64,000 nt of DNA from Giardia intestinalis (taxonomy: Eukaryota), in assembly GCA_000002435.2 (NCBI GenBank), contig CM018793.1; one strand, 5' to 3'. A program made the translations under genes and the position numbers. A model generated the notes under the pieces. That model was given only the letters and a program-made list of their open reading frames with translations. It did not search any database and had not been told where the DNA came from. This document shows positions 3,355 through 62,510 of the stretch, piece by piece; position 1 is the first letter of the stretch; each line of letters opens with the position of its first letter.

Positions 3355-3824
3355 ATTCTCAGGTGCTTGTGCGCAAGGTTGGGGATACCTTTGATATATT
3401 CGATACTGAGAAGAATGGAACAATTGATGTCAGAGAGGTAGGAACTGTTCTGCGCTCCTTGGGGGTGTACCCCACTGAGGCCCAGCTGCACTCCATGCTG
3501 TTAGAAATACAGCAGGATGAGCCGTCCATGTATGTTTCTAAGGCATCGTTTATGGCTGTGGTGTGCCGGGTGATCAGCACAAATGAAATAACTGGTCCTG
3601 CTCCGGATGAACTTGCCCGGGCATTTGCCGTTTTGGACCCCAACAATACCGGGTTTCTAGAAACGGAGCAGCTCAGGGTTTACTTGACTACGAGCGGGGA
3701 GCGGTTGAACGCCGATGAAATGGAGAATTTTAGTGCCTTTGCCACAGATACAGAAACGGGTCTAATTGATTGGAGATCCTATCTAACTGCTGTGACAGAC
3801 ATCCTGTGGCAAAATGATGACTAA
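3339..3824 (+). CDS. EF-hand calcium-binding protein (calmodulin / light-chain-like, 161 aa)
   Basis: There are two canonical 12-residue EF loops, DTEKNGTIDVRE and DPNNTGFLETEQ, plus two degenerate ones. The size and layout match calmodulin or centrin. ATG at 3339 was verified. Confidence 0.8.
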   Translation: MSLEAYSQVLVRKVGDTFDIFDTEKNGTIDVREVGTVLRSLGVYPTEAQLHSMLLEIQQDEPSMYVSKASFMAVVCRVISTNEITGPAPDELARAFAVLDPNNTGFLETEQLRVYLTTSGERLNADEMENFSAFATDTETGLIDWRSYLTAVTDILWQNDD

Positions 3825-3841: not shown

Positions 3842-5695
3842 ATGGCTTGCCTATTAGGTGCTAGCTCGCCGGAGATAGTTTGCTTAATTAACTTAAAAAT
3901 GCTGACCTTTTATGCGCAAATTGCGGCAGCAGAGCGTGCCCCTCTAGTGCCAAGCATTGTCCAGCAATTAGATCCTTTTGAAGGGGGGCTGTGTCTTCAC
4001 TCTCTTGGGTCCAAAGACCTTCGGATTATCTTTCGTGCAATACTGGCGCAGCCCAAGGATTTACAACGCCTCATCATAGAGGACTGCAATTTGAGCTCCC
4101 TCGGCGTGGCACTAAGCAATGCCATCTGCTCGGCAACTGAGCTAGAGACCTTGATCTTCGACAGGTGCCAATTTGCAGTCAACGCTCTGTACACACAAGT
4201 CCTAGCCAACCTCCACCTTACTAAAGTAAAGGCACTCTCTATCATCAATTGCAAACTCACAGATTCTCAGCTCATATCTTTTGCACGCACTCTTGACAGC
4301 CTACCCTACCTTACCGAGCTTTCGCTCTCGCACAACCACGTCAAAGATAGCGCTATAGCGCAGCTCTTTAAGGCTCTTCAGAACTATTCTCTTGATACTC
4401 TGGACTTGCGGTTTTGCGGCCTGGGGTTCCAGAGTGCCAAAATCATCTTGTCGTTTCTTGACCGATACCCAGCAAATATAGGTACATTGCTACTGGACTA
4501 CAATAACTTTAGTGCGAATTTACAGAATCGTCTCCTTCAACGATGCTCTGACGGTGCTCCGCGGGCCTTGGACAAAAGCCAAGGCAGTAGTAGGTCTTTA
4601 AGCAGATCCTTAAGCAGGTCATCCAGCAGGAGTCCACAAGATCGTCGTCTTTCGCATGCTATGCGCACAAATGTCTGCACTAAGATAAGTGGATTCCACG
4701 ACGACGCGCTCCAGAATACTGAGTCAAATACGCTTACTCAAACCCACTTGGATATCAACTCTGGTACACAGATACACATGGATTCTCTTGAACTTGCAGA
4801 TATACAGCCCAATAATCAGGCAGAAAGCGGTGATATGAATCCGATGGTGTTACCATCTCAATCTGCTTCTGAATTGACTCTAAACTTCCCCGGCACTGAA
4901 AATTCTTCTACCATGTTACATACCATTCAGCATTGTATCAATACTAATGAGCTTACTGCCTTTCTAGATGCTCATCCAGACAAACATGGGCACCCGCTCA
5001 ATGTAGACTTCAAGACGTTCAAGTGGTCCTTTTCAGACATCCTTAGTACCTTCCAATCTATTATTTTTTCCTGCCAAAAGCGTAAGGAAAAACTCGGGAA
5101 AGCTGACCTTCGGAAGATGCTCAGTATCTTGCATTCCTTGCACAACGGTTCTGTGACATATAACGCACTCCTGAGATTAGATATGATATATAAATTAAAG
5201 TGTGCAGGCAAACGGAGTGATGCGTACGTAGTGTATCAGGAGAAGAAGGCTGGCTTACTGCTCAAAAGCTCGAACTTGGAACAAGTCGCTGCTTCCCATC
5301 AAAGCGAAATGCAAGGTTTATTTACTCGTATATCAGACTTACAACAACATATTAAAAATGTTACCATACGGCTAGAGGGTGGTAGCCTCGACGAGGAGAT
5401 TAACGATCTAGAGAAGAAAATTTCAGCTACAAAAACCAAAAATGTGGAGCTGTCTACTCAGGTAAAAGAAATACAACAGCTTTACGATGAGCTACTCGCC
5501 ACTGAGTATGCCCAGCAATCATCTGCAGCTGGGTATGTTGATAATCTCCGAAAAGAGTTTCCAGTTTATGCCGAAGCCAGAGAAGGATACTGCAAGTACC
5601 TCTACAATCTAATAGATGAGCTGCTTGAGCGGGTGCGGAATCACAAGAATGAACTGAAAGGTCTTTTGGATGCTATCCGTGTCCGCAGTGTATAG
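3842..5695 (+). CDS. Leucine-rich-repeat (RNI-like) plus C-terminal coiled-coil protein
   Basis: 617 aa. It has repeated L..L.L..N.I/L LRR units (LTELSLSHNHVKDSAIAQLFKAL...LDTLDLRFCGLG), a run of SRSLSRSLSRSSSRS, and a heptad-rich C-terminal third. The domain order resembles LRRC45-type centrosomal proteins, but that is only an impression. There is a second in-frame ATG at 3899, preceded by the AT-rich sequence TTAATTAACTTAAAAATG, and that may be the true initiator. Confidence 0.8.
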   Translation: MACLLGASSPEIVCLINLKMLTFYAQIAAAERAPLVPSIVQQLDPFEGGLCLHSLGSKDLRIIFRAILAQPKDLQRLIIEDCNLSSLGVALSNAICSATELETLIFDRCQFAVNALYTQVLANLHLTKVKALSIINCKLTDSQLISFARTLDSLPYLTELSLSHNHVKDSAIAQLFKALQNYSLDTLDLRFCGLGFQSAKIILSFLDRYPANIGTLLLDYNNFSANLQNRLLQRCSDGAPRALDKSQGSSRSLSRSLSRSSSRSPQDRRLSHAMRTNVCTKISGFHDDALQNTESNTLTQTHLDINSGTQIHMDSLELADIQPNNQAESGDMNPMVLPSQSASELTLNFPGTENSSTMLHTIQHCINTNELTAFLDAHPDKHGHPLNVDFKTFKWSFSDILSTFQSIIFSCQKRKEKLGKADLRKMLSILHSLHNGSVTYNALLRLDMIYKLKCAGKRSDAYVVYQEKKAGLLLKSSNLEQVAASHQSEMQGLFTRISDLQQHIKNVTIRLEGGSLDEEINDLEKKISATKTKNVELSTQVKEIQQLYDELLATEYAQQSSAAGYVDNLRKEFPVYAEAREGYCKYLYNLIDELLERVRNHKNELKGLLDAIRVRSV

Positions 5696-6653
5696 GTAGA
5701 GGGTGCAAGTACGAATTTTCTCCTCTCCATGCTTTGTCTCTGTAGCGTTTGGAAAGCGATCAGTATGTATTTGTTGGTAGATAGATTGGCTAAGTAAGTA
5801 TTCCTTTATAACAAGCTTGAATCATGTATCGATACGTGTCAAATTACGATATCAATTACCCCTAGGAGAGGCGCCCGCCGCCCTCTGCCGTCTGCCCCGT
5901 GGGCCTCTCGAGTGCCCGCGAGGCGATCCGGCTAGCGTGTCCGCGCCCCTTACGTAGGCAGGGATTCTCGCCGTCTCTGTCCCGCCGCCCTGGGCACCAG
6001 CACAGGGTCGCTTGCTGCGCCATCGTTGGTGCCTCTCCCGTGCCGAGCCAGGAGCACTGCAACCGCTGCAGCCTCTGTGTCAGGGCGGCCCGCACTGTTT
6101 TGTGGGTCCTCCTATGAGGTGCAAGCCGCGTGGGTGCCCTGATCGAGGTCGGCTAGCTGATCGGAAGCCTGAAGCCGGAATGACAGGCGCTCACAGTCTT
6201 CGACAGCTTTTGGTTCTGCTACTAGGGACAGATACCCACGATGACTATGCCCCCATCAGTTCGAATACAGTTGGCTGCGTTGTGGCCACGTCGTCAGCGT
6301 GTATCGGCTGGGCCCCTCAGAAGCTAAGAGTCTCGTCCAGAGCCCTTTCATCTCTATTTTGTTTCCAGTACTACTCCTGGAAGTCTACTAGCCCTTTGTC
6401 ATGGTTAATGTGCAATGTTTCTAAGCTCTCAAGTCGTGGGACAGCCCGAGCACTCCTTGCCTTTCCCACTTCCTAGCAGGTTCACAAGCTGAGTTAGAGA
6501 CGGCCGATTCTCCTGGCCCACAACTAATAGACGCTGTACTAGCTCTACTCAGCTGCGCCTTCGGCTCTGTTTAGGCCAAGCTCCCAGTTCCCTGGAGGGA
6601 CACCCTCATTCCCCATATCTTTAATAAAGGCTAGAGCATTCATAGCCATACGT

Positions 6654-7336
6654 TCATGTAAAATATAACGCATGCTCCAAATACTCGAGGTGGTTATGCC
6701 CTTTCCTACTCCATGCCCCCGGGACTGTATGCATTAGCATGACTTCAAAATATGCTCTGTTGAGCCTATCTTTTGGAGCACAGAAAACTAAAAGAACGGA
6801 GCCATGTTTTCGCCATGATCGAACTCGGTTACGACTAGATATACTGTACTGCGACAGAGGAAAGCTCTCCATTAGAGTGTCTTTTCTCAGACACGTGAAA
6901 TGCGCCATCAGAGCCGAAATCCGACGAACCATCTCGAGGGCTTTGGCCTCTTGGATGGCCATTCTCCACTGTCTGAAGAACCTTATTGCGTCTTTAAGAG
7001 CAGACTTATAACATTGCATGCACAGGCAAAAGGTTCTTTGTTGTGCAATACCTGTTTGTATTCAAAGGGATGTAAAGGCTTGAAGAGCTGCATAGTACAC
7101 AGGTCGGCCTCAGTGGCGTCCGGAATAATCCCCTTCAATTAGATACCCCTACCTACCTCGTCCAATGTGTCTTTCAATGCATAAACAGTTCTATACAATC
7201 CTTTGCCAATCACTATAGCCAGCTTAATCATCGGATCATCACTCGTTTCAGTTTTCTCAGACATTTTTAGTTGATACTCGATGAGCTGACCTAATTGGTA
7301 GTGCCAAAGGTAGCATGAAGTTTGTCTGCTTTGCAT
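6654..7336 (-). pseudogene. Possible decayed gene. Two minus-strand ORFs (65 aa and 121 aa) are separated by an in-frame TAA and a +1 frameshift.
   Basis: Reading the minus strand by hand through 7141-7020 gives ...DEVGRGI*LKGIIPDATEADLCTMQLFKPLHPFEYKQVLHNKEPFA, and then the downstream ORF (MQCYKSALKD...) is in another frame. I could not assign a family. It sits inside the gene-poor block. Confidence 0.2.
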
Positions 7337-10300
7337 ATGGAAGGATCTGTTATATCCTTACAGAATTTGGCAGTGCAATGTATAATTACCAACAAGGATC
7401 TGTAAAGCAAATAGTCACAAGTTTTGAAGGATTTAGCAAGACTAAAAGTCACTCTCAGACCTCAACTTGAGTATAAGTGATGATCCTATCGAGAACTAAA
7501 GGTCCATAAACGTAACGGAACAGGCGAATAGTCCGATAATTATTTCTTCTTGAAACGACAGATTTTTTCATGCTTCTAAGTGATTAAACTAAAGACAAAT
7601 TCTAGGCTAAATAAGAGCCCCGGAATCCCTTGAAGCATAAGCTATCCTATTACTGGGTTATTATAGAATCTAACTAACTCTAGTACTGTGGAATGGCAAC
7701 CAGGTTTAAAGTAAGGGAAGATCTATGTGCTTACAGACTTTAGGCCCACGGGATAGGGGTAGCAAATCATATATTTGAAGCTAATTGTTTGCCATCTTAT
7801 CTTCTAGCTGATTCACAGTAATGTGTATCCTTCGCACCGCAAATGGTTTCTAGTATCAAGAAAATGCATAGCAACTCTACCGGGCTACAGCTAAAATAAA
7901 GCAAGAAGCAAAGTCCACGGATATATGCCCAACTATACATAGTTATCATAATTGGCTAGGGCCTCGCGGATTACACAGTGCCTTTGCGATGTGCAAGATA
8001 ACATCGTATAGTAATGTGCACTCATCCATAAAGTAGCACGCATTATTTGTACATATTGATGTAGCAGGGCCTGGTATCTCCAATTATCCGGATAGCTTTC
8101 TAACTCGACTAGTAATAAGTTGCAATATCTTTATTCTTCGCCAAATGGCCAGCATTTTCTGAGGGTCTAGACCAGGAATAGTGAAGTCAGCATTCAATTG
8201 AGTACTTGTACACTGCACATAGGGTGGGTTGGTCTCTACGCATCCAAAGTTTGTAGCGGAAACTCATTGCGTAACTATCTAAGAATCCTATGCAAAATCG
8301 ATAGCTCTTAACGCAGATAGGCTATCTTTTCAAATCTACAAATCGCTAAGATCCCCTTTCTAAAATCTTCGACATCACAGACCCCATGCCAGGCAGCAAA
8401 CCTTGTGCTACATAATATGAGAGCCTCTAGGATGTGTAAACACCTGTGCGGCTACAGCGACGTATCTCCATTCACAGGTGCCAGTAGAACCGATGGACAC
8501 TGGTGAAGCATATCGGTGGGTGGAAGATGTAGTGAGTCAGGCATTCTGTATACTGTCATTCACCACAGCTCCCGTAGTGAGCCATGGGGAGCCTGAAGAC
8601 TGGTGCTCTATGGCGGCGTGAGTGTGGGTGGTGAGCCTAGAGCAGTCGCCGAATCGATGGTTTCGGGACAGCTTCTGTCATGAAGGATAATAGAACAGTG
8701 CAGCGAAGAACAGGTAACCCAAGTATCAAGAGATACACCTATAATGGCAACCAAGAGAAGTGCTATACATAGTTAGTGACCAATTCCCTTAGACAGGAAG
8801 CGGCAGATTATATGGCAGAAGAGAAGTGTTGTTACTGTCGGCCGATCAAGCATTCTAAGACATCGAAGCTGTGACGATGCATCTACCAGTGAGCTCCATC
8901 GTGCATTCTGAATGGCACGTTGCCCAACTAAGCTAGGGAAGTTCAGGAGATGACTACGCCCTTCTGTCATCGTATGTGCCCTTTGTGAACACATGTTTGA
9001 CCCAGCATCCTCTGGCACTCAGAGTAAACCCAAGTGCAAGCAGGGTCAGGCTCATTGAGGCACACCTGCTACGAGTAGCCCCTAGTGTTGGCCAGTCACA
9101 CCTGAGAGCGTATCTGTCTAGGAGAGCTCTATGTAGGGCGAGGAAGACCATCCTTCGCTGGTTGGCCGTGACTTGGAGCTCAGAACAGACAGGAAACTGA
9201 AGTGGTGGCTGGGCTATTGCTCCGCATCGTCTGTGCAGCCATGGCCAGGTCAGCCAGAAGGATGCCTCGATGTGCACATGATTGGCTTGTGTCTGAATAC
9301 TAAAAAAACTTGAGGCAGCCACCGCGCCCGCCACCCCCAGGACAGAGCTTCTGCACGTATGGCTAGCTCCCCTTGTCAGTTCAGTCTATTGGTCCAATAG
9401 TCTGGGAACCCTCTGCCCCGCTCTCTGGCGTACGATGTATCGCAACTGCTCATAGGGGTAAGCAGCATGAAAGAGGAATTGCATGTGTAGACAGCGTGTT
9501 ATGCCCGTCTCAGAGGACCGAGGTGTCTAACTACAGAGCGCTGCACCGAGCCATGCGCCCCACTGCCTTGCACTGGGGGCTGCCTCCACCACTGCACTTG
9601 CTACAACGGAGCTGTGTTGGCCCAGCAGATTAAGTAGATACTGCATCGACCCTATTTGACGATGTGTACACATCGCGTGATGTCCAATGGTGGAGCGGAC
9701 ACCGTGTGCCAAGGTGTCTGCTATTAACGAAAAACAGCACTTGGTTGCACCAGAGATGCTTCTGTGTAAGCATGGGGTCTTCACACCTGTCCCCTATCAG
9801 CTATAGTGCCAGCTGTATATCCAGAAAGGTCCTGCAGAGCACTCCACCGTCTTTCAAGGTGAGACATGGGCTCCACACCTATAGCTAGAAACAGAACTCT
9901 GTACACCAACTGTTGTGACCCTCGTGTGGTAACTGGCCTGTATCATAATCAACTTACTAAACATCTATACACTTGTCTGGATGCCCGTTGCTGGTTTTAG
10001 ACGGACCTGCGAAAAGGTTTGCCTTTGTCCGCATGACCTAGTGGTATCTAGTCTTGGTGACAGGCTTCAAGGAAGGAGGATGTTATTTGGGTACACAGAA
10101 GGCTACTCGTGTACAAAGATTCTCGGGAAGCAAATTTAGACAAAGAAGATGGAGAAAGCCAGGGAGCCCACTCTGTAATAGGATGACTAGGTATAGACCC
10201 ATTTACAATAGGGAAGCACGTGAGTCATTCTGGCTTCTAAACATGGAAAGATCGTGGAGTCTGCGGACGACTTGGAGGCTGATTTGATTTTGTGCATTTG

Positions 10301-12098
10301 TAGCGAGGCAGAGGCTTTTGAAGACCCACCTGTTCCGAAGTCGAGGGAGCTCGTTTCCTCTCCGTACGTGGCGCAAGACCCTATTGTAGAGGTATACGGT
10401 GCACACCAATATCAGTCAGCGTGTTTGCTACTCAGCAGTTCCTCAGTTGCGTCTTTCCGCAGTAGACGAGCCACCGGATGAGGCTCCCACAATCCACACG
10501 ATTAGCTTTATAGTGCTCTGTAGATGGCCATCCACCCTCACCAGGGGATGACTACATGCATTACGCAGTTTGAGGTACTTGGCAACCAAGGTGGCATAGT
10601 TAGCTCTTGCCCACTCAAGCTAGACCTCAACCACCTTGCCAACTACATTCCAAGTCACGGTGTTTATAGATGTCCACCTCAAGTCTGCAAGGTGCATCCC
10701 ACGACTGCACAGCGCGGATAGAACCCTTTACCTGCTATAAGAGGCGCCAACCAGTTTGCTGCATCTGGATATCCCTTGTGCGCCCAACGGAGACTTAATG
10801 GATCACATTGCTGTGCACACCAGCCTCTCTGCTCGCGAGCTGCTTTAAGGCTCTCTCATTGTCTCGCCTCCACATGGTTGTCAGACTACCAAGCACTTTG
10901 TAACGTCAGCTGATCACCCGAGATATCAAGCTTTCGTACAGCGGGTTGCTCAATGTGACACGAAATCTAGAGGGCACTGACTTTCTTAGCTTGCTGTCCA
11001 TATAGCACTATCATCAATCTTCAGTCCAGTTGACCAGCACACAGTCCGTTCTCTGGCCAGCCAACCGGGCCTAGTCTTGCTGGTAGACTTTCGAGCATAA
11101 GAGTATCCCCTGACAGCGGTGGCCACGCTGTGTGCCTTGCCCAAATGATCACTCTCGGCAATGGCTCCAGGACCTGGGCACCCCAGACCAGAGGGACGAC
11201 AACGGCCCAGTTCGTCTACGGCTCCACTATCCCTTAGTTAGCATGGAGTGTGGCAGCCCAGATAGCGCTGGCCGTCCGGTATCACCTTTTCTCCGGTGCG
11301 CGGGGGTAGCCCTCGTGTGAGAGGCGCTGTGATATGTTGGCTGGAGCCGGTCAGGCGAGCGGGACCACCGCTCTAGAAGTGCTGGCACATCATTGCGTGT
11401 CCGAAGGCGTGCCCACCTCAGTGGGACCATCCCAGATGAGGACGAACGGGTACCGGTTCCTTCAGAGGGGCCTGCGACCAGCGAGGGACAGTCTTTAAAG
11501 ACGATCGGCCGGCAGAACCTGCTTCAGTGGCATAGGAGTCGACAGGGGGCAGGCTTATCGACGGTCTGCGGTGCAACCAGGTTAAGTCGTATGACAGACG
11601 GACATCCATCCGTTCGCGGTGGGCATGTTGCGTGTCCCTAAGCAGAGGGGGCAGTCGTAGTGAGTCGCGATAGAACACGCAGCCATCCTCCACGGGGCAT
11701 CGCTCCTGCCGGGCCTCAATGTAGGACCTCGACAAGCAGTGTCTGAGGCATCTGCTTGTGATGACCCGTGGCTCGGGCTGCTGGGGATCGCACGGCCGGC
11801 TCCATCGGGTCGCTGGTCAGACATCCAGGAGAGCCTAGGAGTCCCTTGGCAGACCTTGTGACTGGCACAGCAGGAGAACTGGTCGCCAGGAGACCCTCAC
11901 ATCACAGCGAAGAGCGAGGCAGACCACTGTCTAGCAGTTACCATGCGATGCGCCTTGCAACACAGAGGAGGGGCCTGCACTGATCGATCCATCTCACAGC
12001 CAGCCAGTCACATGAAAGTCGAATCAGCACGACCCCACCTCTCAGTGCAGACCCATGCGGAGGGCCTTCCTTGCCAGTGCGTCATGTAGCACAGACAG

Positions 12099-13943
12099 AT
12101 GCCACGAAGGGGCGGACTAGTGAACAGAGCTGTCATGGCCTGTGTGACAGACGCTGGCACAATGTTCTACGCAGTTTTGCTGATCGGCCTCATGCTCGAG
12201 ATGGCACGGGCAGCGCAAGCCGGAGACGAATGCGAAGAGGTAACTGGCAGCGAACCCAACACTTGCAAGGCCTGTAGCGCCGTCATCAACGGCAAGAAGT
12301 ACTGCTCGCAGTGCAACAGCGGTGGGTCTCAATCTGCCCCGACGGACGGCAAGTGCACAACAGACAACAACGAATGTAGCCAAAAACAAGATGGGAAGTG
12401 TACACAGTGCGCTAATAAATCCTTCATGTACAAGGGCGGATGCTACAAGGATAGCCAGGCACCTGGCAACACGATGTGTGAAACAGCAACTGATGGAGTG
12501 TGCACGCAGGCTAAGGCTGGGTACTTCCTACCACCCGATGCTGATAGAGATAATGCACACCAATCGGTCATACCATGTGGAGATGACACAGTAGTAACGC
12601 TTGGAAATAGCAAACAGTACAAGGGCGTACCGCACTGCACTCAGTGTGAGAAGCCCACAGAGGCAAGTGATACTACTACTGCCAAGGCTGCGACGTGCAC
12701 GGCTTGTGAGGACGGGTTCTTTGGGGCTACTTGTGAAGCATGCCAAGACGAGAATTGCGCTACGTGTGCCATGACAGGCAATAACAAGTGCAGTAAGTGT
12801 AAAGGAACTGGTACTAAGACATATCTGAAAGTGGACAGTGGCAGCACAGGCACGTGCGTCGAAGCATCTGGATGTACAGCGGCTACGTTTCCAAAGGTCG
12901 ATGAACAACAGGGAAACAAGTGCGCTGCATGTAATAGTGTGCCAGATGGTGGAATCGCTAATTGTGCGACGTGCAGTCTGCTCACTCAAGGATCTAGAGC
13001 CGCCCCTTTGGTCACATGCTTGACGTGTGAACAAAATAAGTATCTCACTCCAGAAAAGAATGCGTGCTTAGATACCTGCCCTGCTGGAATGTATGCCGTT
13101 AGTGGCGATAGCGGCAATGTTTGTACCCCCTGCCACGAGTCGTGCGCAAGCTGTAGCAATGACGCAGCAACGTCGTGCACGGCCTGCTATCCGGGGCATG
13201 TGCTGAGTCGGTCGTCTGGTGACGCAGGAACGTGCATAAAAGAGTGCACGGGAGACTTTATGGCCCACTGCAAGGCCGACGGCTGCTCACTGAACGTCGG
13301 AGGCTCGAAGTACTGCGATCAGTGCGAGGAGGGGTACGCCCCAGTCGACGGCGTCTGCACATCCATACCTGCAACAGCGAGAGATGCCTCCGGATGTAAG
13401 GCAAGTGGCGGGAAATGCACTGAGTGTGGGGCAAACTACGCTCTGTTATCGGGCGGATGCTACAACACACAGAAGCTTCCTGGTAGCTCTGTGTGTACGG
13501 CTGCACAGAATAAGGGACAATGCCAAACGTGTGCCAATGGACAAAGCCCAGCTGGAGGAAAATGTCCGGCGTGTACTGAAGGATGTGTGAAGTGTGCGGG
13601 TAGTAAGGAAACCTGCACAGATTGCTTAGCAGGGTATTACAAAGGTGCCGGTGATAAATGCTTCAAATGCACGGATAGTGATAAGGCTAGCTCTAATGCA
13701 ATAACTGGTGTAGAAAACTGCATAAGCTGTGCCCCGCCAGCTGGTGGCAATGGCCCTGTCACCTGTTACGTAACGCAACAAAAGGCTGACGATGGCACCG
13801 GCGGAGATACTGGAGGAGACAGCACGAACAAGAGCGGCCTCTCCACGGGCGCCATCGCGGGGATCTCCGTCGCTGTGGTCGCTGTCGTGGGGGGCCTCGT
13901 GGGCTTCCTCTGCTGGTGGTTCCTCTGCCGGGGGAAGGCGTGA
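12099..13943 (+). CDS. VSP: Variant-specific surface protein (VSP), 614 aa as printed
   Basis: The ectodomain is dense in CXXC motifs. There is a GGCY motif, a C-terminal TM, and the invariant tail [16 protein letters not shown]. The stop codon is directly followed by ACTTAGGTAGTGAA. The hydrophobic signal peptide begins at the third in-frame Met ([20 protein letters not shown], nt 12162), so the real start may be 12162. Confidence 0.9.
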
Positions 13944-13959
13944 CTTAGGTAGTGAATGC
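13943..13959 (+). promoter_or_regulatory. Conserved VSP 3' element / extended poly(A) signal (ACTTAGGTAGTGAATGC; AGTGAA core)
   Basis: It lies immediately after the TGA of VSP1. The same motif follows both of the other VSP-type 3' ends in this window. AGTRAA is the known Giardia polyadenylation signal. Confidence 0.7.
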
Positions 13960-13974
13960 TGTACAGTGATAGTG

Positions 13975-14214
13975 ATAGTGCTATGTGGTGTGACATGCTC
14001 TGTGGGTGACTGCAAGAGCTGTGTGATGGATGATGTGTGTGGGGAGTGCAGCGATGGGTTCAGCATAGAGGGTGGCAGGTGTGTGTCTTCTGGCACCAAC
14101 AGGAGCGGGCTCAGCGCGGATGCCATCGCGGGGATCTCTGTGGCTGTCGTCGTCGTCGTCGGAGGGCTTGTCGGCTTCCTCTGCTGGTGGTTCGTGTGCA
14201 GAGGAAAAGCGTAG
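13975..14214 (+). pseudogene. Truncated VSP. Only the C-terminal ~80 codons remain: last CXXC motifs, TM, CRGKA.
   Basis: It translates to ...[76 protein letters not shown]. It starts only 30 bp after the VSP1 stop. It has no signal peptide or N-terminal domain. The Met at 13792 in the ORF track lies inside VSP1 in another frame. The relic is followed by ACTTAGGTAGTAAAT. Confidence 0.7.
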
Positions 14215-14760
14215 ATGTACTTAGGTAGTAAATACGTCACTGTATAAGCCTATCACTCCTGTTTCCAGGGCCTCGCCTGTAGGTGCATTCAAGGATCTCA
14301 CGGGCAATTCTTATTCAATTTCTGGCCGTCCGGAGATGAGGGTTGGTTTTGGATAACATAACGAGAGAGTCCTCTCCAGTGATATATCCAGAGCCTAGCG
14401 CCTTCCCCGGTCGCTCCGCAGGGGTGTGCTCAGACCGAATGCGTACTTCGGTCCTTTCGGGGTTCAGGCCTTCTTACGGACTCTCTGGTCCACCAATGGC
14501 GCCTCTTCTTGGTCTTCCTTCGTGGCGGGTGAAGCTCCGGTCGCTGTCTTTTTTAGATGCCCCGTCTGTCGGGGGCTGCCATCGGGCTCTCCGCTGGCTG
14601 GGCCCCTCGGTGTCCGTCCGGCTGTGTCCCGGGCAGCGCTCTACAGTCGCGGTCACGTAGGTCCCAGTGGGCCGGCTGGTGGGTGGGGCGGGGGTATGGG
14701 GCGGTGAGGCTGGAGGGGCTCTGGTGGGACCAGGTGGTGGGTGTTCGTATGTGCCCCTGA
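14095..14760 (+). repeat. Inverted-repeat arm A (VSP 3' coding end plus ~550 bp of downstream flank)
   Basis: Its reverse complement matches 16375-17060. Identical translated strings appear in opposite-strand ORFs on the two arms: QSRSRRSQWAGWWVGRGYGAVRLEGLWWDQVVGVRMCP, YEHPPPGPTRAPPASPPHTPAPPTSRPTGTYVTATV and FPGRSAGVCS. I also checked a nucleotide alignment by eye. It is about 80-90% identical, with one indel block of about 60 bp. Confidence 0.8.
14219..14236 (+). promoter_or_regulatory. VSP 3' element / poly(A) signal (ACTTAGGTAGTAAATACG)
   Basis: It comes directly after the TAG of the truncated VSP. Confidence 0.6.
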
Positions 14761-16374
14761 GCTCCTGATGAGTGGGGTGATCGCAGCTGTGGTGACTGGG
14801 GGCTGTCCATCTGTGACTCACCCCTCTGTGTGCTCGTGGTCTGTGAGTGCCTCCACCCAGACAACGCCTCAGGAGCCGTGCACACCGGGACAGAGAGGAT
14901 GACCAAGGGGGTCAAGCAGCCCCGCTACGAGAGATGAGAGTGCACAGCAACCAGCCTGATCTGCAGGGCTGCTCGAGCGATGTAGTGGTAGACGGCTCCC
15001 TCTGACAGCGACCCTGGTGACTGCACTGGCCTGCTCTCGAGGCTGAGTGACAGTGTGCACAGATGGACCTGAGTGCAGGAGGACCATCCACACACGAACA
15101 GACTGTGTAGACCCAGAGAGGACTGGAGTCTGCTCGGGACACGCTGACTGTGCCCCCATACGAGAGCACCAGGCAACCACCCGAGCACCCGAGAGGCAAC
15201 AACAGACACGGGCACCAGAGATCCCCAACCAGATACATTGCTACGCTCATCCACAGGGGCATCAGAGGACCAGGTGGGGTCACCCTCACAGTCAGGGCCT
15301 GATAGGAAGCCAGAGGACTCACGCAGCACAGTAGGTCCAAGGGAGGCACACTCCAGGCAGGTGAGCAGTGGCAGAGCCCTGACAGCTGCCAGCCCCCATG
15401 ACACCCAGGCAGGCACCAGACTCACCGAAGACTCCGCTGGCCTCGACTGTCTTCATTGATGACCCGAGGGGGCAGCAGCCAGAGGAGTGAGGAGGCCTTC
15501 GGACGCCACAAGAGGCCCGGCTGTCCAGCAGGCTACGAGGCAGACAGGTGACCTCTGAGCACCACCCAGGCACAGAGCCGACCATCAGAGTGATGCCCGA
15601 TCACAGAGATGATCACGAGCACCCTCCACTGCACTCTGAGGGGCTGTCAATCATCCCAGCTGCCTCTCATAGCAGACCTCCTTGGGGGCAGTGCAGTGGG
15701 TCCCAGCTCATGCAGGAGGGTGCACGCCCCTCGGCATAGGATGCCCCGGCTCTCCCCGAGGGGTCATCAGAGCCACGAGAGGTGTTAAGGTTAGTAGACC
15801 ACACCGGGAACTCCCGAGGGCACAGCAGGTGATGTTGGGTGATCCTCAGCGTGCTCCTCTCTGATGGTAGAGCATCCTGAGACCAAGGAGGCTCACCTCT
15901 GCCTACGGACGACACACAGCGCTCCACAACGAGGACCCACCAGGAGCAGCACAGCTGGTCACGGGGATAGTGCAGCCACCCGGTGCCCCACCATGCCAGT
16001 CTTCTGGGCCATCACACTAGAGGCACGAGAGAATCCATCCCATCCACAGGCTCATCCACACCCCTGCTGGCCCGAGGTGAACTACCGTCGAGGCACTGGA
16101 CAGGGCATGCCAGGGGCTCAGCAGATCCACACAGAGCATCAGCACAGAGCATCAGCGAGTAGCAGGAGAGGCTGCGATGGCCTGCCTCAACCCTCACGCA
16201 CCAGCCAGACAGAGAGGCAGTACTGCCCGAGACAAGGGGCCAAGGGAGGCGCTCAGTCAGGGGGACACGACACGATCGTCGGTGCCTGTGTCTTGGAGTG
16301 CAACGAAGGCTGGGGATCAGACACAACCACCTTAGCAAACAGAGCGGGGATCACCCACCACCCCACTGGCCCAC

Positions 16375-17060
16375 TAGACCCAGGGACACATACGAACACC
16401 CACCACCTGGTCCCACCAGAGCCCCTCCAGCCTCACCGCCCCATACCCCCGCCCCACCCACCAGCCGGCCCACTGGGACCTACGTGACCGCGACTGTGGG
16501 ACCACTGCCCAGAACCACAGCCGGACGGACACCGAGGGGCCCAGCCAGCGGAGAGCCCGGTGGCAGCCCCTGACAGACGGGGCATCTAAAAAGGACAGCG
16601 ACCCGGGCTTCACCCACCGTGAAGGAAGACCAAGGAGAGGCGCCACTGGTGGACGATGTACATGGTGAGTAAGCGGAATCCCAGGCCGACTGAGCAAGCA
16701 TTCCCGGGTGTGCACACTCAGCTGAGCACACCCCTGCGGAGCGACCAGGGAAGGTGCCAGGTTTTAGATATACTAAAAGAGAGGAGCTCCTCGTTATATC
16801 ATCCACAACCAACCTTTGTCTCCGGACACGGCCAAAGGAGCGAGAATTTATTCGTGAGATTTCTGGATCGTACCTACAAGCACCCGGTAGCACATCCATA
16901 TAAGCTACATAAAGTAACGCGTTTACTACCTAAGTCTACGCCTTCCCCCTGCAGAGGAACCACCAGCAGAGGAAGCCCACGAGACCCCCCACAACGACGA
17001 TGACTGCGACGGAGATCCCCGCGATGGCGCCAGTGGAGAGCCCGCTCTTGTTCGTGCTAC
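16375..17060 (-). repeat. Inverted-repeat arm B (3' end of VSP2 plus downstream flank)
   Basis: This is the partner of arm A. See that entry. Confidence 0.8.
16921..16935 (-). promoter_or_regulatory. VSP 3' element / poly(A) signal (ACTTAGGTAGTAAAC on the minus strand)
   Basis: It is the reverse complement of gtttactacctaagt, and it lies immediately 3' of the VSP2 stop. Confidence 0.7.
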
Positions 17061-18168
17061 CACCGGCACTGTCACCGTTCATGAGGTAGCAGAGAACGGA
17101 GCCAGTACTAGACGATGGAGGAGCGCAGCTCATGCAGCCAGCAACTCCCTTGACACTTCCACTGTTGCTGTCACACGAAGTGCATGGTCCAGCTGCTGAT
17201 CCGACCATATAGTACCCAGCTGCGCATGACGTACACTGGTCAGAGCTATCTGCAGCTGAACATGTATTACAGGTTGAATGACACGAGGGGCATGCTCCAT
17301 CATTGGGCCGAAGACTATTAGCACATGTTTCGCACTTACCCCTGCTATCAGCTAATGTGCATATCTGTTTGCCTGGCTGCTTGGTAGTTTCATAGCAGCC
17401 GCCTTCCTTGAGGAAGTAGTTAGCGGCGCATTTGGTACATGCTCCATTATTCATTTCAGTACAGAAAGCTACTCGTGCGTTACTTGTTGTACAGACCCCG
17501 TTCAGAGGAGCCTGATTATCCACTGAGCACTGGGAGCAGTAGTCTGTCCCGCCGATCCTTGCCCCACAGACCTTACATCCGTTCTTGTCCGCCGTACACG
17601 CATCCCCGCAGGTGCCCCCTTGCACAGGATCACTACTTTTGTATATTAATGCCTTGCCAGCAGGACAAGCACTACACTGATTGTTGGCTGGCCCAACGCA
17701 CTCAGCGCACTCAGGGCTGCATGCCTTACACTTCCTGTCAGTATCTCCATAGTATCCGCTGATGGTCGTGCAGTCAGGTATGCACTGGTTTGTTGGAGTG
17801 AGATAATTGTTGTCATTACATTCAGTGCAGACCTCTCTGTCAGTCTTCGGGTTATCACAGGCCTTGCAGTTGGGAGTATTGCAGGCCCCTGCCTTCGGAA
17901 CACACGTGAGCCCGTCCTCTGACGGCTGGTACGTCTCCGTGCACGTGCAGATTCCTCCTGCCTCGTTTGCGTTATCGGGGCACTTCGCTATGCAGCCCTT
18001 TCCGTTCGGCTGGACCTTCTGTCCGACCGTCGCACAGCCCGTGCATGTCTGCTCGCCCCCAGGAGGCGTTGCGCACGTGCTACAGCCGGGTATCGGTGGG
18101 TCACAGGCCGTTTTCGGGCCGATTCCTGCTAGAACCGTTGTGCACACTAAAAGAATTACTGCCAACAT
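16936..18168 (-). CDS. VSP: Variant-specific surface protein (VSP), 410 aa
   Basis: The N-terminal signal peptide is MLAVILLVCTTVLAG. The ectodomain is CXXC-rich, followed by a TM and the tail [12 protein letters not shown]. The ATG at 18168 was verified. The upstream region is AT-rich. Confidence 0.9.
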   Translation of the reverse strand: MLAVILLVCTTVLAGIGPKTACDPPIPGCSTCATPPGGEQTCTGCATVGQKVQPNGKGCIAKCPDNANEAGGICTCTETYQPSEDGLTCVPKAGACNTPNCKACDNPKTDREVCTECNDNNYLTPTNQCIPDCTTISGYYGDTDRKCKACSPECAECVGPANNQCSACPAGKALIYKSSDPVQGGTCGDACTADKNGCKVCGARIGGTDYCSQCSVDNQAPLNGVCTTSNARVAFCTEMNNGACTKCAANYFLKEGGCYETTKQPGKQICTLADSRGKCETCANSLRPNDGACPSCHSTCNTCSAADSSDQCTSCAAGYYMVGSAAGPCTSCDSNSGSVKGVAGCMSCAPPSSSTGSVLCYLMNGDSAGGSTNKSGLSTGAIAGISVAVIVVVGGLVGFLCWWFLCRGKA

Positions 18169-18439
18169 TAAGTTTAAGCTTACGCTCGATTATTATTCTC
18201 TTCAATTAAGCTTATAATTAATCCATAAGTTATAGACAAACCACTGTTACCTTTTGATAAATCAATTAGAATGGAAAAGAATAAAATCAAGAGCACACCT
18301 ACCAGAGGCCGGCTGATAGTGCGGTTCTCCCTGGCTTCAATAGAAACAGGATGAGTGAGGGCTAGACTCAGATCGTGCGTCCCTGCGGAAACTAATAATT
18401 GTTCAGAGATGCATTCCTATACATTGCTGTCAGTATGTT

Positions 18440-18486
18440 TGTCGACTTTTTTGCAGAGGCAAGGTGTAGATTTAGGTAGTAAATGC
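18440..18486 (+). pseudogene. Orphan VSP tail relic (…FCRGKV-stop followed by ATTTAGGTAGTAAATGC)
   Basis: The sequence ttt tgc aga ggc aag gtg tag translates to FCRGKV*, and the conserved VSP 3' motif follows it. There is no VSP body upstream. It lies about 270 bp beyond the 5' end of VSP2, on the opposite strand. Confidence 0.5.
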
Positions 18487-19634
18487 GTTAACTGATATGT
18501 GCAGATCCCTCTGTGCCCAGCTCGGGCTCCTCAGTAGCATACCTGGATCTGATGGATAGAGAAGCACACCTACTATAAGCATCTCTTGCTGATGGCCTGT
18601 AACCACCTTTTACAGTCCAGTGTGCATCCTCTAGTGCTCCACTTCCCCCTGTGGCCAGTGTATCTCTAGGGCGAAGCAGACTCTTTTGAAAAGGTATTGA
18701 CCTAGCACCATGAAGGAGCGCGGGGCACTGCACTGGGCCCGTACACAGGTCAGAGGCCCGTAGTTGTAGGTCAGCAAGATCCCGGTGCGACGGTCGGGTG
18801 CTCGTCCATCAGAGCTCTCAGGATGGTGGCCAGGGGGCAGGAGCGACGCCTTTCTTGTCGGTCGCGACGCTGGTCAGTTGTCGATGCAAAATGTGCAAGG
18901 CCCCACAGGCGAGGAGCACAGAAGGGCACAGGGAGCGTAAGGCCACCAGCAACTCGTAACTTTTTATATCTTGGTGGCCGGTCTCAGCACTTCGTAGGTG
19001 CAGATATGAGAAGCTGGGCCGAGTGATCTGCTGGTGGAGGGGCCGACACACACTTCTCTAAGGGTTCTGCCATGGGTGACGACGATGGTAGGCCGCACCA
19101 CTGCAGGACCGACGCACGCCAGAAATAGATGAAAGGCTCGCAAGCAGGTGCAGACTGGAGCGCCAGCCGCTGGCCGGATCACCCGCACAGGCACGCTCTG
19201 GTTACTTCAATAGATGGTTCAGTGGCACCTTAACGGAAAACACTGCTGCGCTCCACTTGCTGGCCATTTGAGGCACGCAGGTTCGATTGGTCCCAGGGCC
19301 ACCGCTAAGCGTGGCATGACAGGCTATCTCCCAACATCGGGCGGCGGTAAGACTCACGCCTACTTTTAGCCAACTGAGCTCGAAGCAATCCATGCCCTTG
19401 CGGGTCCATACTGGCGTGGTCTGTACAGCTATGCGCAGTGATGCATAACAGACCTCGGAACCGTAGACACCCTGGGCGCGCCCCTTGCTGCGCAGGGCCA
19501 GGGACGCCGGGCGTTTTTAGGCTGTCTACCTGGATAGGGTTGTATTCTGGAATGAATAGTAAAATGAAACGCGCTCCAGCGTTCATGCTTAATCGAAGCA
19601 TAATACATCACTCCAATAAATTGAATGCAAGATC

Positions 19635-39591: not shown

Positions 39592-39765
39592 TAGCAGTAC
39601 AGAGTAATTATTATTTTAGTAAGCTGTAGAAGAAGAAAAAATACATAGCCATAAAGCGTTCTATTGACGCCAGTGAAAATTGCAAGGAAGCGCAACTTCT
39701 TATTTCGCAGACTTACCCGTAATGGCGTTGACTGAAGAGAAAAACGTGAACAGCAAATGGAAACG

Positions 39766-39813
39766 CTACAGTGCATTGTTACAGACTACACTACAGTCGA
39801 TGCTATGTCTACA
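39766..39813. promoter_or_regulatory. Cluster of CTACAG-type (Giardia Myb2 consensus C[T/A]ACAG) motifs upstream of the Myb gene
   Basis: CTACAG occurs at 39766 and 39791, TTACAG at 39779, and CTACAA at 39808. Further CTACAG copies lie at 39997 and 40716. There is also a CTGTAG (CTACAG on the gene strand) at 39624, about 35 bp 5' of the Myb ATG. Confidence 0.4.
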
Positions 39814-40812
39814 AAAGTGTGGATGAGATGGCAGTCGGGCCGCGCTGCATCAGAGTGGTTCAATTGGGACGGAGCGGGAGCAGTCCGTCTAATTCTTTTG
39901 AATCAGAATTCTTTGCACGAAATGCATGGCTATCATATGCATTGGGCTGCTCTCATTCTCCAAGACGCCTGGCAAAAGTTTCCCAGAACTGTACCTCTAC
40001 AGCAACAGGTCTTTGCGGCGTTACAATAATAATTTAAACAGCACTCAAGCGAGAAGGCATGTATAAGTGGGCAACACCCAGGACAGGTCTTGGCGTTTAT
40101 GGCGTTTCGGGCGTTTACCTTGTTGCGCATGGCGTATATTCTAACGAACCCCAAGGACCCCATGCCATGTACTGCTCATGTGCCAGTTGGATGCTTTAAA
40201 AACTCTGAAAACTCATGGTCGATAGCGAAACGAAGAAGGGGAGCCGGACAAACCAGGCTCGAAAAGGCAGACTCGCGGCAATTAAGCTTGCAGCCAATTG
40301 ACGAAAAAAATCTTTGCAAAAGTGTGGTAGAAACTAGTTACTAATCATTCTTAAATGAAAACCGGAAAGCGCGTCTAGAAGTAGTGCTGTGCCATTGTCG
40401 ATCAACCGGGAAAGTGCATAATCTGTTTTGGCTCCTAGATGAGGGCCTATTCATGGTTTGCATGTGTCCATCAAACAAACACCAGTTGACATGTTCCATA
40501 AGGGATAGAATTTTTTTATAATATTGCAATCAGTTGTGTTAGACAAACCATCAGTAGGCAAGACAGAGTAGGGTAGGGTTAAAATACATTGTGCAGTCAG
40601 CTATAGAGGTGCAGGGCCCGTTGGTATGTCGATACACTACGCTGATACAGATTCAGCAGACTAGTTTTGCATGAACCATGGATGGGCACATCCTGTCAAC
40701 TGCCAAGCCCGCATGCTACAGTGCCAGTAAGCTCCTAGAGGAGGGCCTGAGAGGTTGCGAAGATGAATGACGGAGTAGGTAAAATCATAGACTTTCAAGA
40801 AATTTTCAAAAA

Positions 40813-61520: not shown

Positions 61521-61542
61521 TGCATGCAGCGGCGGGCTCAGT

Positions 61543-61887
61543 TTACTTCTTGTTGCTTTCGTAAGTATCTGTTGCAAACTTGAGAGCTTCCTTGGCCGCT
61601 TCTAGCTCTTTTTCAGGAGGAGTCGGAAGGGCTTCTGCCTCTTTAAGCACGGCCTCCATGGCCTTTATCTGTTTCTGCAGGCGTGCAAGATTGGCAGGAA
61701 TGGACTCCTCCACATCCTTTATGACATTTGTTTGAATATTAAGGCGACCTTCTTCTGCGCCTTCTGACTTCATTTTCTCGAGGCGGGCGCGCTCACACTG
61801 CAGCTCCTTTGCGTCAGCTAGCACGTCTTTCGCCAGCCTCTTTGTAATGCTGGCCTCTTTTGTCAATTTCTTGGCAATCTCAGTCAT
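61543..61887 (-). CDS. Tubulin-folding cofactor A (TBCA)-like small coiled-coil protein
   Basis: 114 aa. The stretch ITKRLAKDVLADAKELQCERARLEKMKSEGAE...IPANLARLQKQIKAMEAVLKE follows the TBCA pattern (V.RL.KE..yY.KE..qqe.ki.KM.aE...). The size matches. ATG verified. Confidence 0.55.
   Translation of the reverse strand: MTEIAKKLTKEASITKRLAKDVLADAKELQCERARLEKMKSEGAEEGRLNIQTNVIKDVEESIPANLARLQKQIKAMEAVLKEAEALPTPPEKELEAAKEALKFATDTYESNKK
61603..61629. repeat. 27-bp direct repeat copy 1 (TAGCTCTTTTTCAGGAGGAGTCGGAAG). The second copy is at 61979-62005.
   Basis: I saw it directly. There is one mismatch (G/A). Copy 1 lies inside the TBCA-like CDS. Copy 2 spans the stop codon of the neighbouring coiled-coil gene. 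Confidence 0.7.
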
Positions 61888-61998
61888 TAGAATTTATTTT
61901 TACCGAGTAAAAGGTGCGATATGTATTAAGAGCTTTACTAGAGAGGTGCATTCACTGAGAAGATCGCTTACAAGGCCCTAGCTCTTTTTCAGGAGGAG

Positions 61999-62406
61999 TC
62001 AGAAGCAACCCCGCTTTTTGCCACTCTGTAGCTTTTGCTTCAAGAGCTCAATCTGATGGTCCCTTTCGGCTAATTGCTTGGTCATATTGCCCAGATTCTC
62101 GCGCAATACACCGACGTCCTCTGCATTAGCCAGGGTTTGTTGCCGTCTTCTGAGAGATCCCACCTCTTGCTGAAGGTTAGTGATGTACTGTCTAATGGGC
62201 TGGTTAAGGCCTTCGAGAGACGGAGGCGACAGACTGTTGCTTATGGTTCGCATGGCCTCGTTCAAACAGGCAACTAGGATTGTCGTCTCTTCAGCCGTAC
62301 TTCCAGATTCTGCACGGAGCTGTTCTATAATCTTCCGATTCTCAAGAACCTCTTGCCTGAGTGCCTCTTCGGTCATCGTGGTCAACTCGGTGCTTTCCCT
62401 GAACAT
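61999..62406 (-). CDS. Small coiled-coil protein (135 aa from first ATG), hypothetical
   Basis: The ORF-track start is a GTG, and the first ATG is 62406. The protein is heptad-rich and basic at the C-terminus. Confidence 0.5.
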   Translation of the reverse strand: MFRESTELTTMTEEALRQEVLENRKIIEQLRAESGSTAEETTILVACLNEAMRTISNSLSPPSLEGLNQPIRQYITNLQQEVGSLRRRQQTLANAEDVGVLRENLGNMTKQLAERDHQIELLKQKLQSGKKRGCF

Positions 62407-62510
62407 ATGTTTTTTTGAGATTTTAAGCACTGTGCAGGGAATTAAGCCTCCAAAAATAAAGAGGCGGTGACGAAGATTACGATCAATCTTGGATGGATGA
62501 TTCCTTATTA

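Follow-up and report, generated by a model that had tools for sequence, protein, structure and literature searches.

A putative NEK-type kinase pseudogene and probably degenerating DNA upstream of a VSP pair in Giardia intestinalis WB

We analyzed a 64,000-nt stretch of DNA from Giardia intestinalis WB (hereafter the window), in which a long block separates an LRR gene on the left (GL50803_004554, KAE8305471; stop at 5695) from a VSP gene on the right (KAE8305472, MFYAV...). Since KAE8305471 and KAE8305472 are consecutive, no annotated protein-coding gene lies between the two. The initial annotation placed the end of the block at 12098 and the VSP start at 12099; the VSP is annotated from 12162, and we therefore corrected the gap to 5696-12161. 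Its description of six stop-dense frames lacking a long ORF was confirmed. The longest stop-free run in 5696-12098 was 172 codons, with 556 stops, which is comparable to composition-preserving block shuffles (mean longest run of 162 codons, 595 stops). The three composition blocks were likewise reproduced, with GC contents of 0.58-0.63 (5800-6400), 0.37-0.41 (7200-8400), and 0.47-0.62 (8400-12100). The statement that all other gaps in the window measure 20-250 bp was incorrect, as gaps of 448, 510, 762, 990, 1221, 1466, and 1920 bp were also found when distances were taken between ORFs of at least 150 aa. The largest of these adjoin the VSP cluster, and the 6.4 kb block is more than three times as long as the next largest gap.

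As judged from comparison with its orthologues by tblastn, blastn, and frameshift-aware alignment, the left 1.4 kb of the block (5863-7264, minus strand) is what is left of a NEK-type kinase and ankyrin-repeat gene, a pseudogene orthologous to GL50581_4240 and to P0043-P0046. The earlier view that no ORF here has any protein-like character thus held insofar as no intact gene is present, but it missed this recognizable pseudogene. The kinase-domain and coiled-coil part (6326-7264, minus strand; ATG at 7262-7264) is well preserved and corresponds to orthologue residues 1-326. In tblastn, residues 1-326 of P0043, P0045, and P0046 aligned to the minus strand from 7264 to 6275 in shifting frames, with summed E values of 2e-24 to 1e-24; from P0044, only residues 81-273 aligned to the pseudogene. 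At the nucleotide level (blastn), positions 1976-3151 of contig L012, which carries an intact kinase gene, matched window 7468-6316 with 62% identity (E 5e-84), and positions 3528-3633 matched window 6068-5965 with 69% identity (E 1.6e-7). A local NEK profile scored 25, 16, 10, and 7 bits on fragments in 6432-7357 (minus strand), compared with a shuffle mean of 0.2 bits.

The ankyrin and C-terminal remnant (5863-6325, minus strand), which forms the GC-rich island, retains only weak traces, such as a match of P0046 residues 453-482 to 6063-5974 (tblastn E 0.018). It spans ~460 nt, compared with ~786 nt expected, with ~330-350 nt missing relative to the orthologues, and it gave no Ank match in a six-frame Pfam scan. 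The conceptual translation of the pseudogene reached no Pfam threshold, including that of Pkinase, so the kinase homology of the WB copy derives wholly from the orthologue comparison.

In the orthologues P0043-P0046, a Pkinase domain (E 1e-30 to 1e-34) precedes ankyrin repeats (Ank_2, E 1e-54 to 1e-60). Two divergent Giardia lineages have intact genes of 579-588 aa in the corresponding position and in convergent orientation to the LRR gene, and GL50581_4240 of GS (assemblage B), a member of the orthologue cluster, is a third orthologue. The runs ERR3333378 and ERR3333381 presumably represent the dog-derived assemblage C/D cysts of PRJEB32663. In contig L004, an intact 588-aa Pkinase and Ank gene lies 172 nt downstream of the LRR orthologue in convergent orientation, and L011 is arranged likewise; in both, the order dNK-ERCC4-EF-hand-LRR is followed by the convergent kinase. 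The kinase and LRR stops are 120 nt apart in the B-type contig L003, where the reverse complement of the contig tail (...AVVDLLS*) gives the P0045 C-terminus and aligns with window 5859-5880. The corresponding 3' spacer between the LRR gene and the dead kinase in the window occupies 5696-5862, with the ancestral kinase TAG preserved at 5863-5865 on the reverse complement. On the other side, L012 has a VSP divergent from the kinase start, as in the window. No Giardia copy was found when JGI metagenomes and GTDB genomes were scanned for exact patterns, a search of metagenomes with the NEK alignment returned only unrelated kinases (26-28% identity), and a literature search with the gene IDs of the locus retrieved no paper.

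Frameshift-aware alignment of the pseudogene with P0046 revealed at least 10 frameshifts and at least five in-frame stops, with 47% identity on aligned residues. The WB copy has kept the start ATG and the ancestral stop, and ~350 nt have been deleted, mostly from the ankyrin part. The stop at codon 42 and the frameshift near residue 80 are common to WB and the AII-like contig L009. Between the A1 and AII-like isolates, the block differs by 3-6% plus indels, compared with 1.2-1.4% in CDS and 2.6-2.9% at third codon positions. With disabling lesions, some of them common to a related isolate, and divergence at or above the synonymous level, the WB copy is, on sequence grounds, a pseudogene.

The AT-rich segment at 7265-7573 appears to have once flanked the kinase gene on its 5' (promoter) side. 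It matched the region upstream of the intact L012 kinase in nhmmer (E 7e-6), and the blastn match with this contig reaches 7468. GC content rises in the 5' to 3' direction from 0.43 to 0.72 in the pseudogene and from 0.43 to 0.69 in the intact orthologue, and the L012 sequence upstream of the kinase is likewise AT-rich (GC 0.33-0.42). The intact B-type gene and its 5' flank thus have a composition like that of the GC-rich island and of some of the AT-rich stretch.

Comparison with assemblage E (P15 contig ACVC01000010) divided the block further. In P15, homology resumes ~17 nt after the LRR stop, at window 8349 onward, and 5711-8348 is missing. Because the left end of this segment is present in the B-type contig L003, 5711-8348 is ancestral, and its absence from P15 reflects a deletion there. 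The following segment, 8349-9511, is collinear with the tail of the P15 contig, with an alignment score of 184 compared with 5±4 for shuffles. Identity was 68.4% over 1022 columns with 82 indels, of which 13 were multiples of three, and the mismatches showed no 3-periodicity. In neighboring genes, third codon positions are 72-75% identical between WB and P15. Change in this segment is thus slightly faster than at synonymous sites, and indel lengths are unrestricted. Identity below that of third positions, together with non-triplet indels, points to neutral drift, and 8349-9511 can be regarded as old non-coding DNA common to assemblage E. A frameshift-corrected ORF and coding sequence in other assemblages, which the initial annotation had held to speak against its reading of the block, were found for 5863-7264; for 8349-9511, the cross-assemblage pattern was non-coding.

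The remaining tracts yielded few matches. The AT-rich tract at 7574-8348, which is 97% identical in the AII-like contig L009 and absent from P15, had no Pfam, Rfam, or homologue match. The GC-rich tract upstream of the VSP (9512-12161) had no match in Pfam, Rfam, NEK-profile, VSP-profile, or protein-homologue searches, except at 10230-10430 and 12083-12161. The first of these (plus strand) has relatives elsewhere and appears to represent a low-copy family: a phmmer search of 1.84e9 representatives returned P0067 (82% identity, E 1e-15) and P0069 (41% identity, E 6e-5), and GL50803_9936, a WB hypothetical ORF seen on 130 contigs, falls into the P0069 cluster. A hexamer score peak at 10197-10496 (plus strand) was the strongest remaining coding-like signal on the right-hand side. 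Since 10230-10430 has relatives elsewhere in Giardia genomes, part of the tract probably belongs to some repeated unit. The second exception (12083-12161, plus strand) is immediate VSP upstream sequence common to a paralogous VSP copy: XP_001708801.1, an old model of this paralogous VSP, has a 20-residue N-terminal extension equal to the window translation just upstream of 12162. The WB-like short-read contig L001 ends at 9141, a point that could mark a repeat boundary.

Decayed VSP sequence, which had been suggested as the origin of the block, was rejected. tblastn with the VSPs of the window gave only E > 2, and the VSP profile scored at most 3.3 bits on the region, no better than on shuffles (2.1±1.6). 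The same local profile detected a VSP fragment (62.5 bits) at 13945-14211, beyond the block. Within the block, only chance-level short matches were found in searches for direct, inverted, tandem, and terminal repeats, and neither blastn against the rest of the window nor tblastn with the 26 proteins of the window gave a match.

The locus resembles other VSP neighborhoods in several respects. VSP surroundings in Giardia tend to be gene-poor (PMC7000408), and this block, directly upstream of a VSP pair and low in coding density, is of the same kind; a long empty interval near a VSP is ordinary for such neighborhoods. As in other VSP-flanking regions, sequence variation exceeds that of neighboring genes, and members of the NEK and VSP families are involved. 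Synteny breaks at VSP, NEK, and ARP families, and NEK presence or absence varies between assemblages (PMC7000408; PMC10132058). Here, too, the contig of every other isolate or assemblage breaks within or just beyond the block. The difference from other VSP-flanking regions is that the content is partly resolved, with the dead NEK gene making up ~22% of the block and the assemblage E deletion 41%.

The Giardia NEK family, with a kinase domain and ankyrin repeats, has 184 members in WB (Xu et al. 2020, PMC7000408). The orthologues P0043-P0046 follow this pattern of Pkinase then ankyrin, and from its ATG to its stop, the WB sequence runs collinear with them. Like most Giardia NEKs, the orthologues lack the HRD catalytic motif and have LHPSQVLI instead. 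Unlike Giardia NEK genes, the WB copy is frameshifted and stop-broken, and has lost most of the ankyrin region.

We consider it likely that the block consists of degenerating DNA without detectable function at a synteny-unstable, VSP-adjacent site of the WB chromosome. The ancestral order was the LRR gene, a convergent NEK-type kinase/ankyrin gene, a divergent spacer, and the VSP. In assemblage A, the kinase gene died in place, leaving its remains as the GC-rich island, and the AT-rich stretch, over at least its first 300 nt, corresponds to the 5' flank of this gene. One 2.6 kb deletion removed the kinase gene together with its 5' flank in assemblage E. Further to the right, 8349-9511 is old non-coding DNA that assemblage E still has in common with WB. 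The remaining GC-rich DNA, as far as the VSP start, is presumably the same unconstrained VSP-flanking DNA, and was possibly built from older gene debris beyond recognition, partly duplicated with the VSP. For 7574-8348 and 9512-12161, this neutral-filler reading is based on negative searches and on extrapolation from 8349-9511. The earlier suggestion of filler beside a VSP cluster was right for the unconstrained part, in agreement with PMC7000408, but not for the left 1.4 kb, which is the putative NEK pseudogene.

It is possible, although we would not expect it, that the DNA from ~9.1 kb to the VSP is a segmental duplication carrying the VSP pair and its upstream DNA, which would make it a copy-number feature. 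The same chromosome carries KAE8305454/55, a paralogous pair almost identical to KAE8305472/73, and conservation in the paralogue extends at least 60 nt upstream of the VSP start. Moreover, L001 stops at 9141 despite 100% identity up to that point, and 6.9% of the WB genome is duplicated, the duplicated regions often holding members of multigene families (PMC7000408). However, the contigs of other isolates end elsewhere (5924-6342, 8759, and, for P15, the equivalent of 9511), so contig ends are weak evidence for a duplication. Such a duplication is compatible with the degenerating-DNA explanation and does not replace it.

It is unlikely that the region of ~7.5-12.1 kb derives from a dead GilD-like non-LTR retrotransposon or from another extinct mobile element. 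Reverse-transcriptase remnants occur between some divergent VSP pairs (Xu et al., PMC7000408), and 10230-10430 has a distant WB paralogue in GL50803_9936 (42% amino acid identity) as well as closer relatives. In these respects, the block resembles GilD and pseudo-RT remnants, being decayed, stop-saturated DNA near VSPs with one short piece that has genomic relatives. However, Pfam searches of six-frame translations with stops masked gave no match on either strand at E ≤ 10, reverse transcriptase included, and 19 single fragments, searched at the same threshold, gave only chance DUF matches; no RT or endonuclease match was obtained in either search. When the stop-free segments of 60 aa or more in 7265-12161 were concatenated and searched against 5.8e9 protein clusters, no homologue reached E ≤ 1e-3, and terminal, inverted, and tandem repeats are absent. 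The dead GilD-type element proposed initially found no support, with neither an RT or other Pfam match nor terminal or tandem repeats. In addition, 8349-9511 is collinear with P15 and is therefore old resident DNA and not a recent insertion. Unlike GilD, the block has no RT or element-type domain, repeat architecture, or poly(A)-like end and is partly collinear with assemblage E, a comparison drawn on these features and not on the Gil sequences themselves.

We regard it as improbable that the 4.7 kb upstream of the VSP is more than debris and represents a copy of a hitherto undescribed low-copy, non-coding unit that travels with VSP genes. If so, this VSP-travelling unit would include the GL50803_9936-like segment (10230-10430) as a conserved piece, and the unit could be a substrate for recombination or duplication, or a source of non-coding transcripts feeding VSP silencing.

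It is highly improbable that a functional long non-coding RNA or regulatory locus, acting, for example, in the control of VSP expression, occupies all or some of the block. The only features that would fit such a role are the position of the block directly upstream of the VSP and its lack of coding capacity. However, Rfam gave no match at E ≤ 1 on 5500-12300, and ARAGORN predicted no tRNAs in the window, so the suggested ncRNA locus did not correspond to any known ncRNA. Within assemblage A, as well as between A and E, the block diverges at least as much as synonymous sites do and has frequent indels, and P15 can dispense with 2.6 kb of it.

A second decayed kinase/ankyrin gene at about 10.5-11.3 kb, hinted at by eye-spotted plus-strand motifs of roughly canonical spacing (PNGDLMDHI, LITRDIKLS...TDF) and by weak tblastn matches of NEK ankyrin regions to the minus strand at 10709-10899 (E 0.02-0.35), is extremely improbable and was effectively refuted, as the NEK profile scored at most 0.2 bits, equal to the shuffle mean, the overlapping hints on the two strands contradict each other, and local alignments to four active Giardia kinase domains, with frameshifts allowed, scored 44-61 compared with shuffle means of 55-62 (the true pseudogene scored 96-140 with three of the four domains and 45 with the fourth).

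Under the explanation that we favor, degenerating DNA around a dead NEK-type gene, no new kind of element or mechanism is revealed, and the practical value of the finding is small. Pfam-type profile scans miss such wrecks, and synteny with other assemblages finds them. A NEK pseudokinase gene that varies between lineages died here, which partly explains an unusually long empty interval of the compact WB genome. The locus also provides an example of how differences in NEK presence and absence arise, the gene having decayed in assemblage A, been deleted in assemblage E, and been retained in assemblage B and two other lineages.

The block at 5696-12098 lay between two genes placed by exact look-up, which located the window in a 4.02 Mb chromosome of Giardia intestinalis WB (ATCC 50803): the LRR protein gene GL50803_004554/KAE8305471 (3842-5695, plus strand) and the VSP gene KAE8305472 (plus strand; ORF 12099-13943, annotated start at 12162, the methionine of MFYAV...). 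Since their accessions are consecutive, the current annotation places no protein-coding gene in the interval. In the current RefSeq models, both proteins begin downstream of the longest-ORF start (598 versus 617 aa for the LRR protein, 593 versus 614 aa for the VSP). The longest stop-free run in the block was 172 codons in any frame, with 556 stops over six frames; in block shuffles preserving local composition, the longest run averaged 162 codons (5th-95th percentile, 123-231), with 595 stops. The ORF structure was thus that of random sequence. The 6.4 kb gap was by far the largest in the window; the mean intergenic distance in this genome is 477 bp (PMC7000408). The three composition blocks described in the initial annotation were present, but its statement that all other gaps measure 20-250 bp was inexact, as gaps of 448-1920 bp exist, with the widest of them found around the VSP cluster (13.9-19.6 kb).

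We compared the block with contigs carrying LRR orthologues from other Giardia lineages. In contig L004 (run ERR3333378), where the LRR protein is 73% identical, an intact 588-aa gene with recorded Pfam matches to Pkinase and ankyrin repeats lies on the opposite strand, 172 nt past the LRR stop, and contig L011 (ERR3333381) has the same arrangement. Four orthologues were found (P0043-P0046), with intact genes at L004 6588-8354, L011 143-1882, and 2177-3925 of the B-type contig L012. The P0046 cluster includes EES98509 (GL50581_4240) from the assemblage B isolate GS and KWX13230 from another assemblage B isolate. Pfam E-values were 1e-30 to 1e-34 for Pkinase and 1e-54 to 1e-60 for Ank_2. All four carry LHPSQVLI at the site expected for HRDLKPxN, making them predicted pseudokinases, as are most Giardia NEKs (PMC10132058); DFC replaces DFG in two of them. 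The B-type metagenome contigs L003 (11810-11956) and L012 (3880-4010) share 55 identical nt over the kinase stop and diverge thereafter: the LRR gene follows in one and a NIF3/DUF34 gene in the other. B-type genomes therefore have two different 3' junctions of the kinase segment, arising by duplication or rearrangement.

Judged by its alignments, the left part of the block is a frameshifted pseudogene of this NEK-type kinase/ankyrin gene. The L004 protein gave three collinear minus-strand tblastn matches in different frames (summed E 2e-24): residues 1-82 to 7264-7028 (45% identity), 81-193 to 7034-6720, and 205-326 to 6688-6326. At the DNA level, L012 1976-3151 matched window 7468-6316 (62% identity, E 5e-84), and its ankyrin region, 3528-3633, matched 6068-5965 (69%, E 1.6e-7). 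A frameshift-aware alignment to P0046 began at a kept ATG at 7264 and required at least 10 frameshifts and at least five in-frame stops, with 47% identity over aligned residues and a heavily gapped C-terminal ankyrin half. The ancestral stop codon was visible at 5863-5865; the reverse-complemented tail of L003, which encodes AVVDLLS*, the P0045 C-terminus, aligns with 5859-5880. These two ends delimit the pseudogene to 5863-7264 (minus strand), 1402 nt versus 1740-1767 nt in intact genes. Pfam no longer recognised its conceptual translation, which explains the blank six-frame Pfam scans of the block. In the protein collections searched, no named model covered it; only automatic calls of 41 and 65 aa, taking in its N-terminus, exist.

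The pseudogene also accounts for part of the compositional pattern. GC content rises 5' to 3' from 0.43 to 0.72 in the WB pseudogene and from 0.43 to 0.69 in the intact L012 gene. The 5' flank in L012 is AT-rich (0.33-0.42) and turns GC-rich (0.56-0.63) near the VSP of that contig; the window shows this order too, and its positions 7265-7573 are still alignable to the L012 upstream region. The GC-rich island is the 3' half of the dead gene, whose 5' flank forms the beginning of the AT-rich stretch. Short-read contigs of AII isolates end inside this island, at 5924, 6012, and 6342.

The AII-like contig L009, 97% identical to the window, shares a stop at codon 42 and a frameshift near residue 80, indicating that the death of the gene predates the split of the assemblage A sub-lineages. 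In P15 (assemblage E; ACVC01000010), homology resumes at window 8349 about 17 nt past the LRR stop, so that 5711-8348 is absent. As L003 contains the left end of this segment and three other lineages have an intact kinase, the absence reflects a deletion in P15 rather than an insertion in WB.

The initial annotation had read the block as gene-free, possibly filler near VSPs. That observation was confirmed and most of the interpretation holds, but ~22% of the block is the dead NEK-type gene; its old 5' flank makes up a further 5%. Over the remaining 4.6-4.7 kb, the P15 contig tail (1.1 kb) was collinear over its whole length with 8349-9511 by nhmmer and global alignment (68.4% identity, 1022 columns, 82 indels; score 184 versus 5±4 for shuffles). 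Only 13 of the 82 indels were multiples of three, and mismatches showed no codon periodicity. Since third codon positions of adjacent genes are 72-75% identical between WB and P15, the rate of change in this tract is no lower than at synonymous sites. Within assemblage A, AII-type contigs differed by 3-6% plus indels over 5696-8759, versus 1.2-1.4% in CDS and 2.6-2.9% at third positions; an AII-like contig ends at 8759. Repeats, heterozygosity, or coverage may lie behind such contig ends, here, in the GC-rich island, and in a WB-like contig at 9141.

Decayed VSP sequence, another suggested origin, received no support (VSP profile, 3.3 bits versus 2.1±1.6 for shuffles), nor did a known ncRNA, as Rfam at E<=1 and a tRNA search of the block were negative. 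A dead retrotransposon was likewise unsupported, with Pfam and repeat searches of the remainder both negative. The NEK profile scored 0.2 bits there, equal to the shuffle mean, versus up to 25 bits on the pseudogene, and no stop-free segment of at least 60 aa matched any of 5.8e9 protein clusters. Frameshift-aware alignment to four active Giardia kinase domains was also negative, at 44-61 versus shuffle means of 55-62; the pseudogene reached 96-140 with three of these domains and 45 with the fourth, that of the window's own kinase.

The highest hexamer coding score in the remainder was at 10197-10496 (plus strand). A search of 1.84e9 representatives with this patch as ORF 10224-10478 gave close relatives in P0067, P0070, and P0071 (80-86% identity), which probably represent this locus in further assemblage A isolates, and a distant one in P0069 (41-42% over 67 residues), whose cluster contains the old WB model GL50803_9936, a 60-aa ORF, on 130 contigs. 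An ORF of 60 aa in WB versus 178 aa in other isolates does not behave like a conserved gene. By similarity, the patch shows at least this 200-nt piece of the right-hand tract to be a member of a low-copy sequence family.

The window VSP pair has a near-identical paralogous pair, KAE8305454/55, elsewhere on the chromosome; an old gene model of a paralogous VSP copy shows 60 nt or more of shared sequence upstream of the VSP start, and a WB-like short-read contig with 100% identity to the window stops at 9141. Taken together, these suggest that the right-hand tract may have been duplicated with the VSPs. The two VSP genes, 12162-13943 (plus) and 16936-18168 (minus), are convergent and 2992 nt apart. 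The paralogue of the 410-aa window VSP reaches 775 aa through about six tandem copies of a ~65-aa unit present once in the window protein. Directly past the first VSP stop, 13945-14211 (plus) scored 62.5 bits to positions 473-544, the C-terminal part, of the local VSP profile and is probably a pseudo-VSP tail. Between the VSPs lies a 207-aa ATG ORF (15864-16487, plus; 63% GC). As a collection of 15 billion proteins has no exact match to its product, this ORF may be either spurious or newly delimited. Other 1-1.6 kb stretches without ORFs of at least 150 aa, at 14241-15863 and 18169-19634 (both sides of the VSP cluster), 39592-40812, and 61521-62510, matched neither NEK nor VSP profiles.

The WB genome is 81% coding and 6.9% duplicated, with 306 annotated pseudogenes; VSP surroundings tend to be gene-poor and more variable, and inter-isolate synteny is broken at VSP, NEK, and ARP families (Xu et al. 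2020, PMC7000408). Assemblage-specific presence or absence of NEK/ARP genes has been reported (Klotz et al. 2023, PMC10132058). The block illustrates these general statements in a concrete case, as an ordinary product of gene-family turnover beside a VSP locus.
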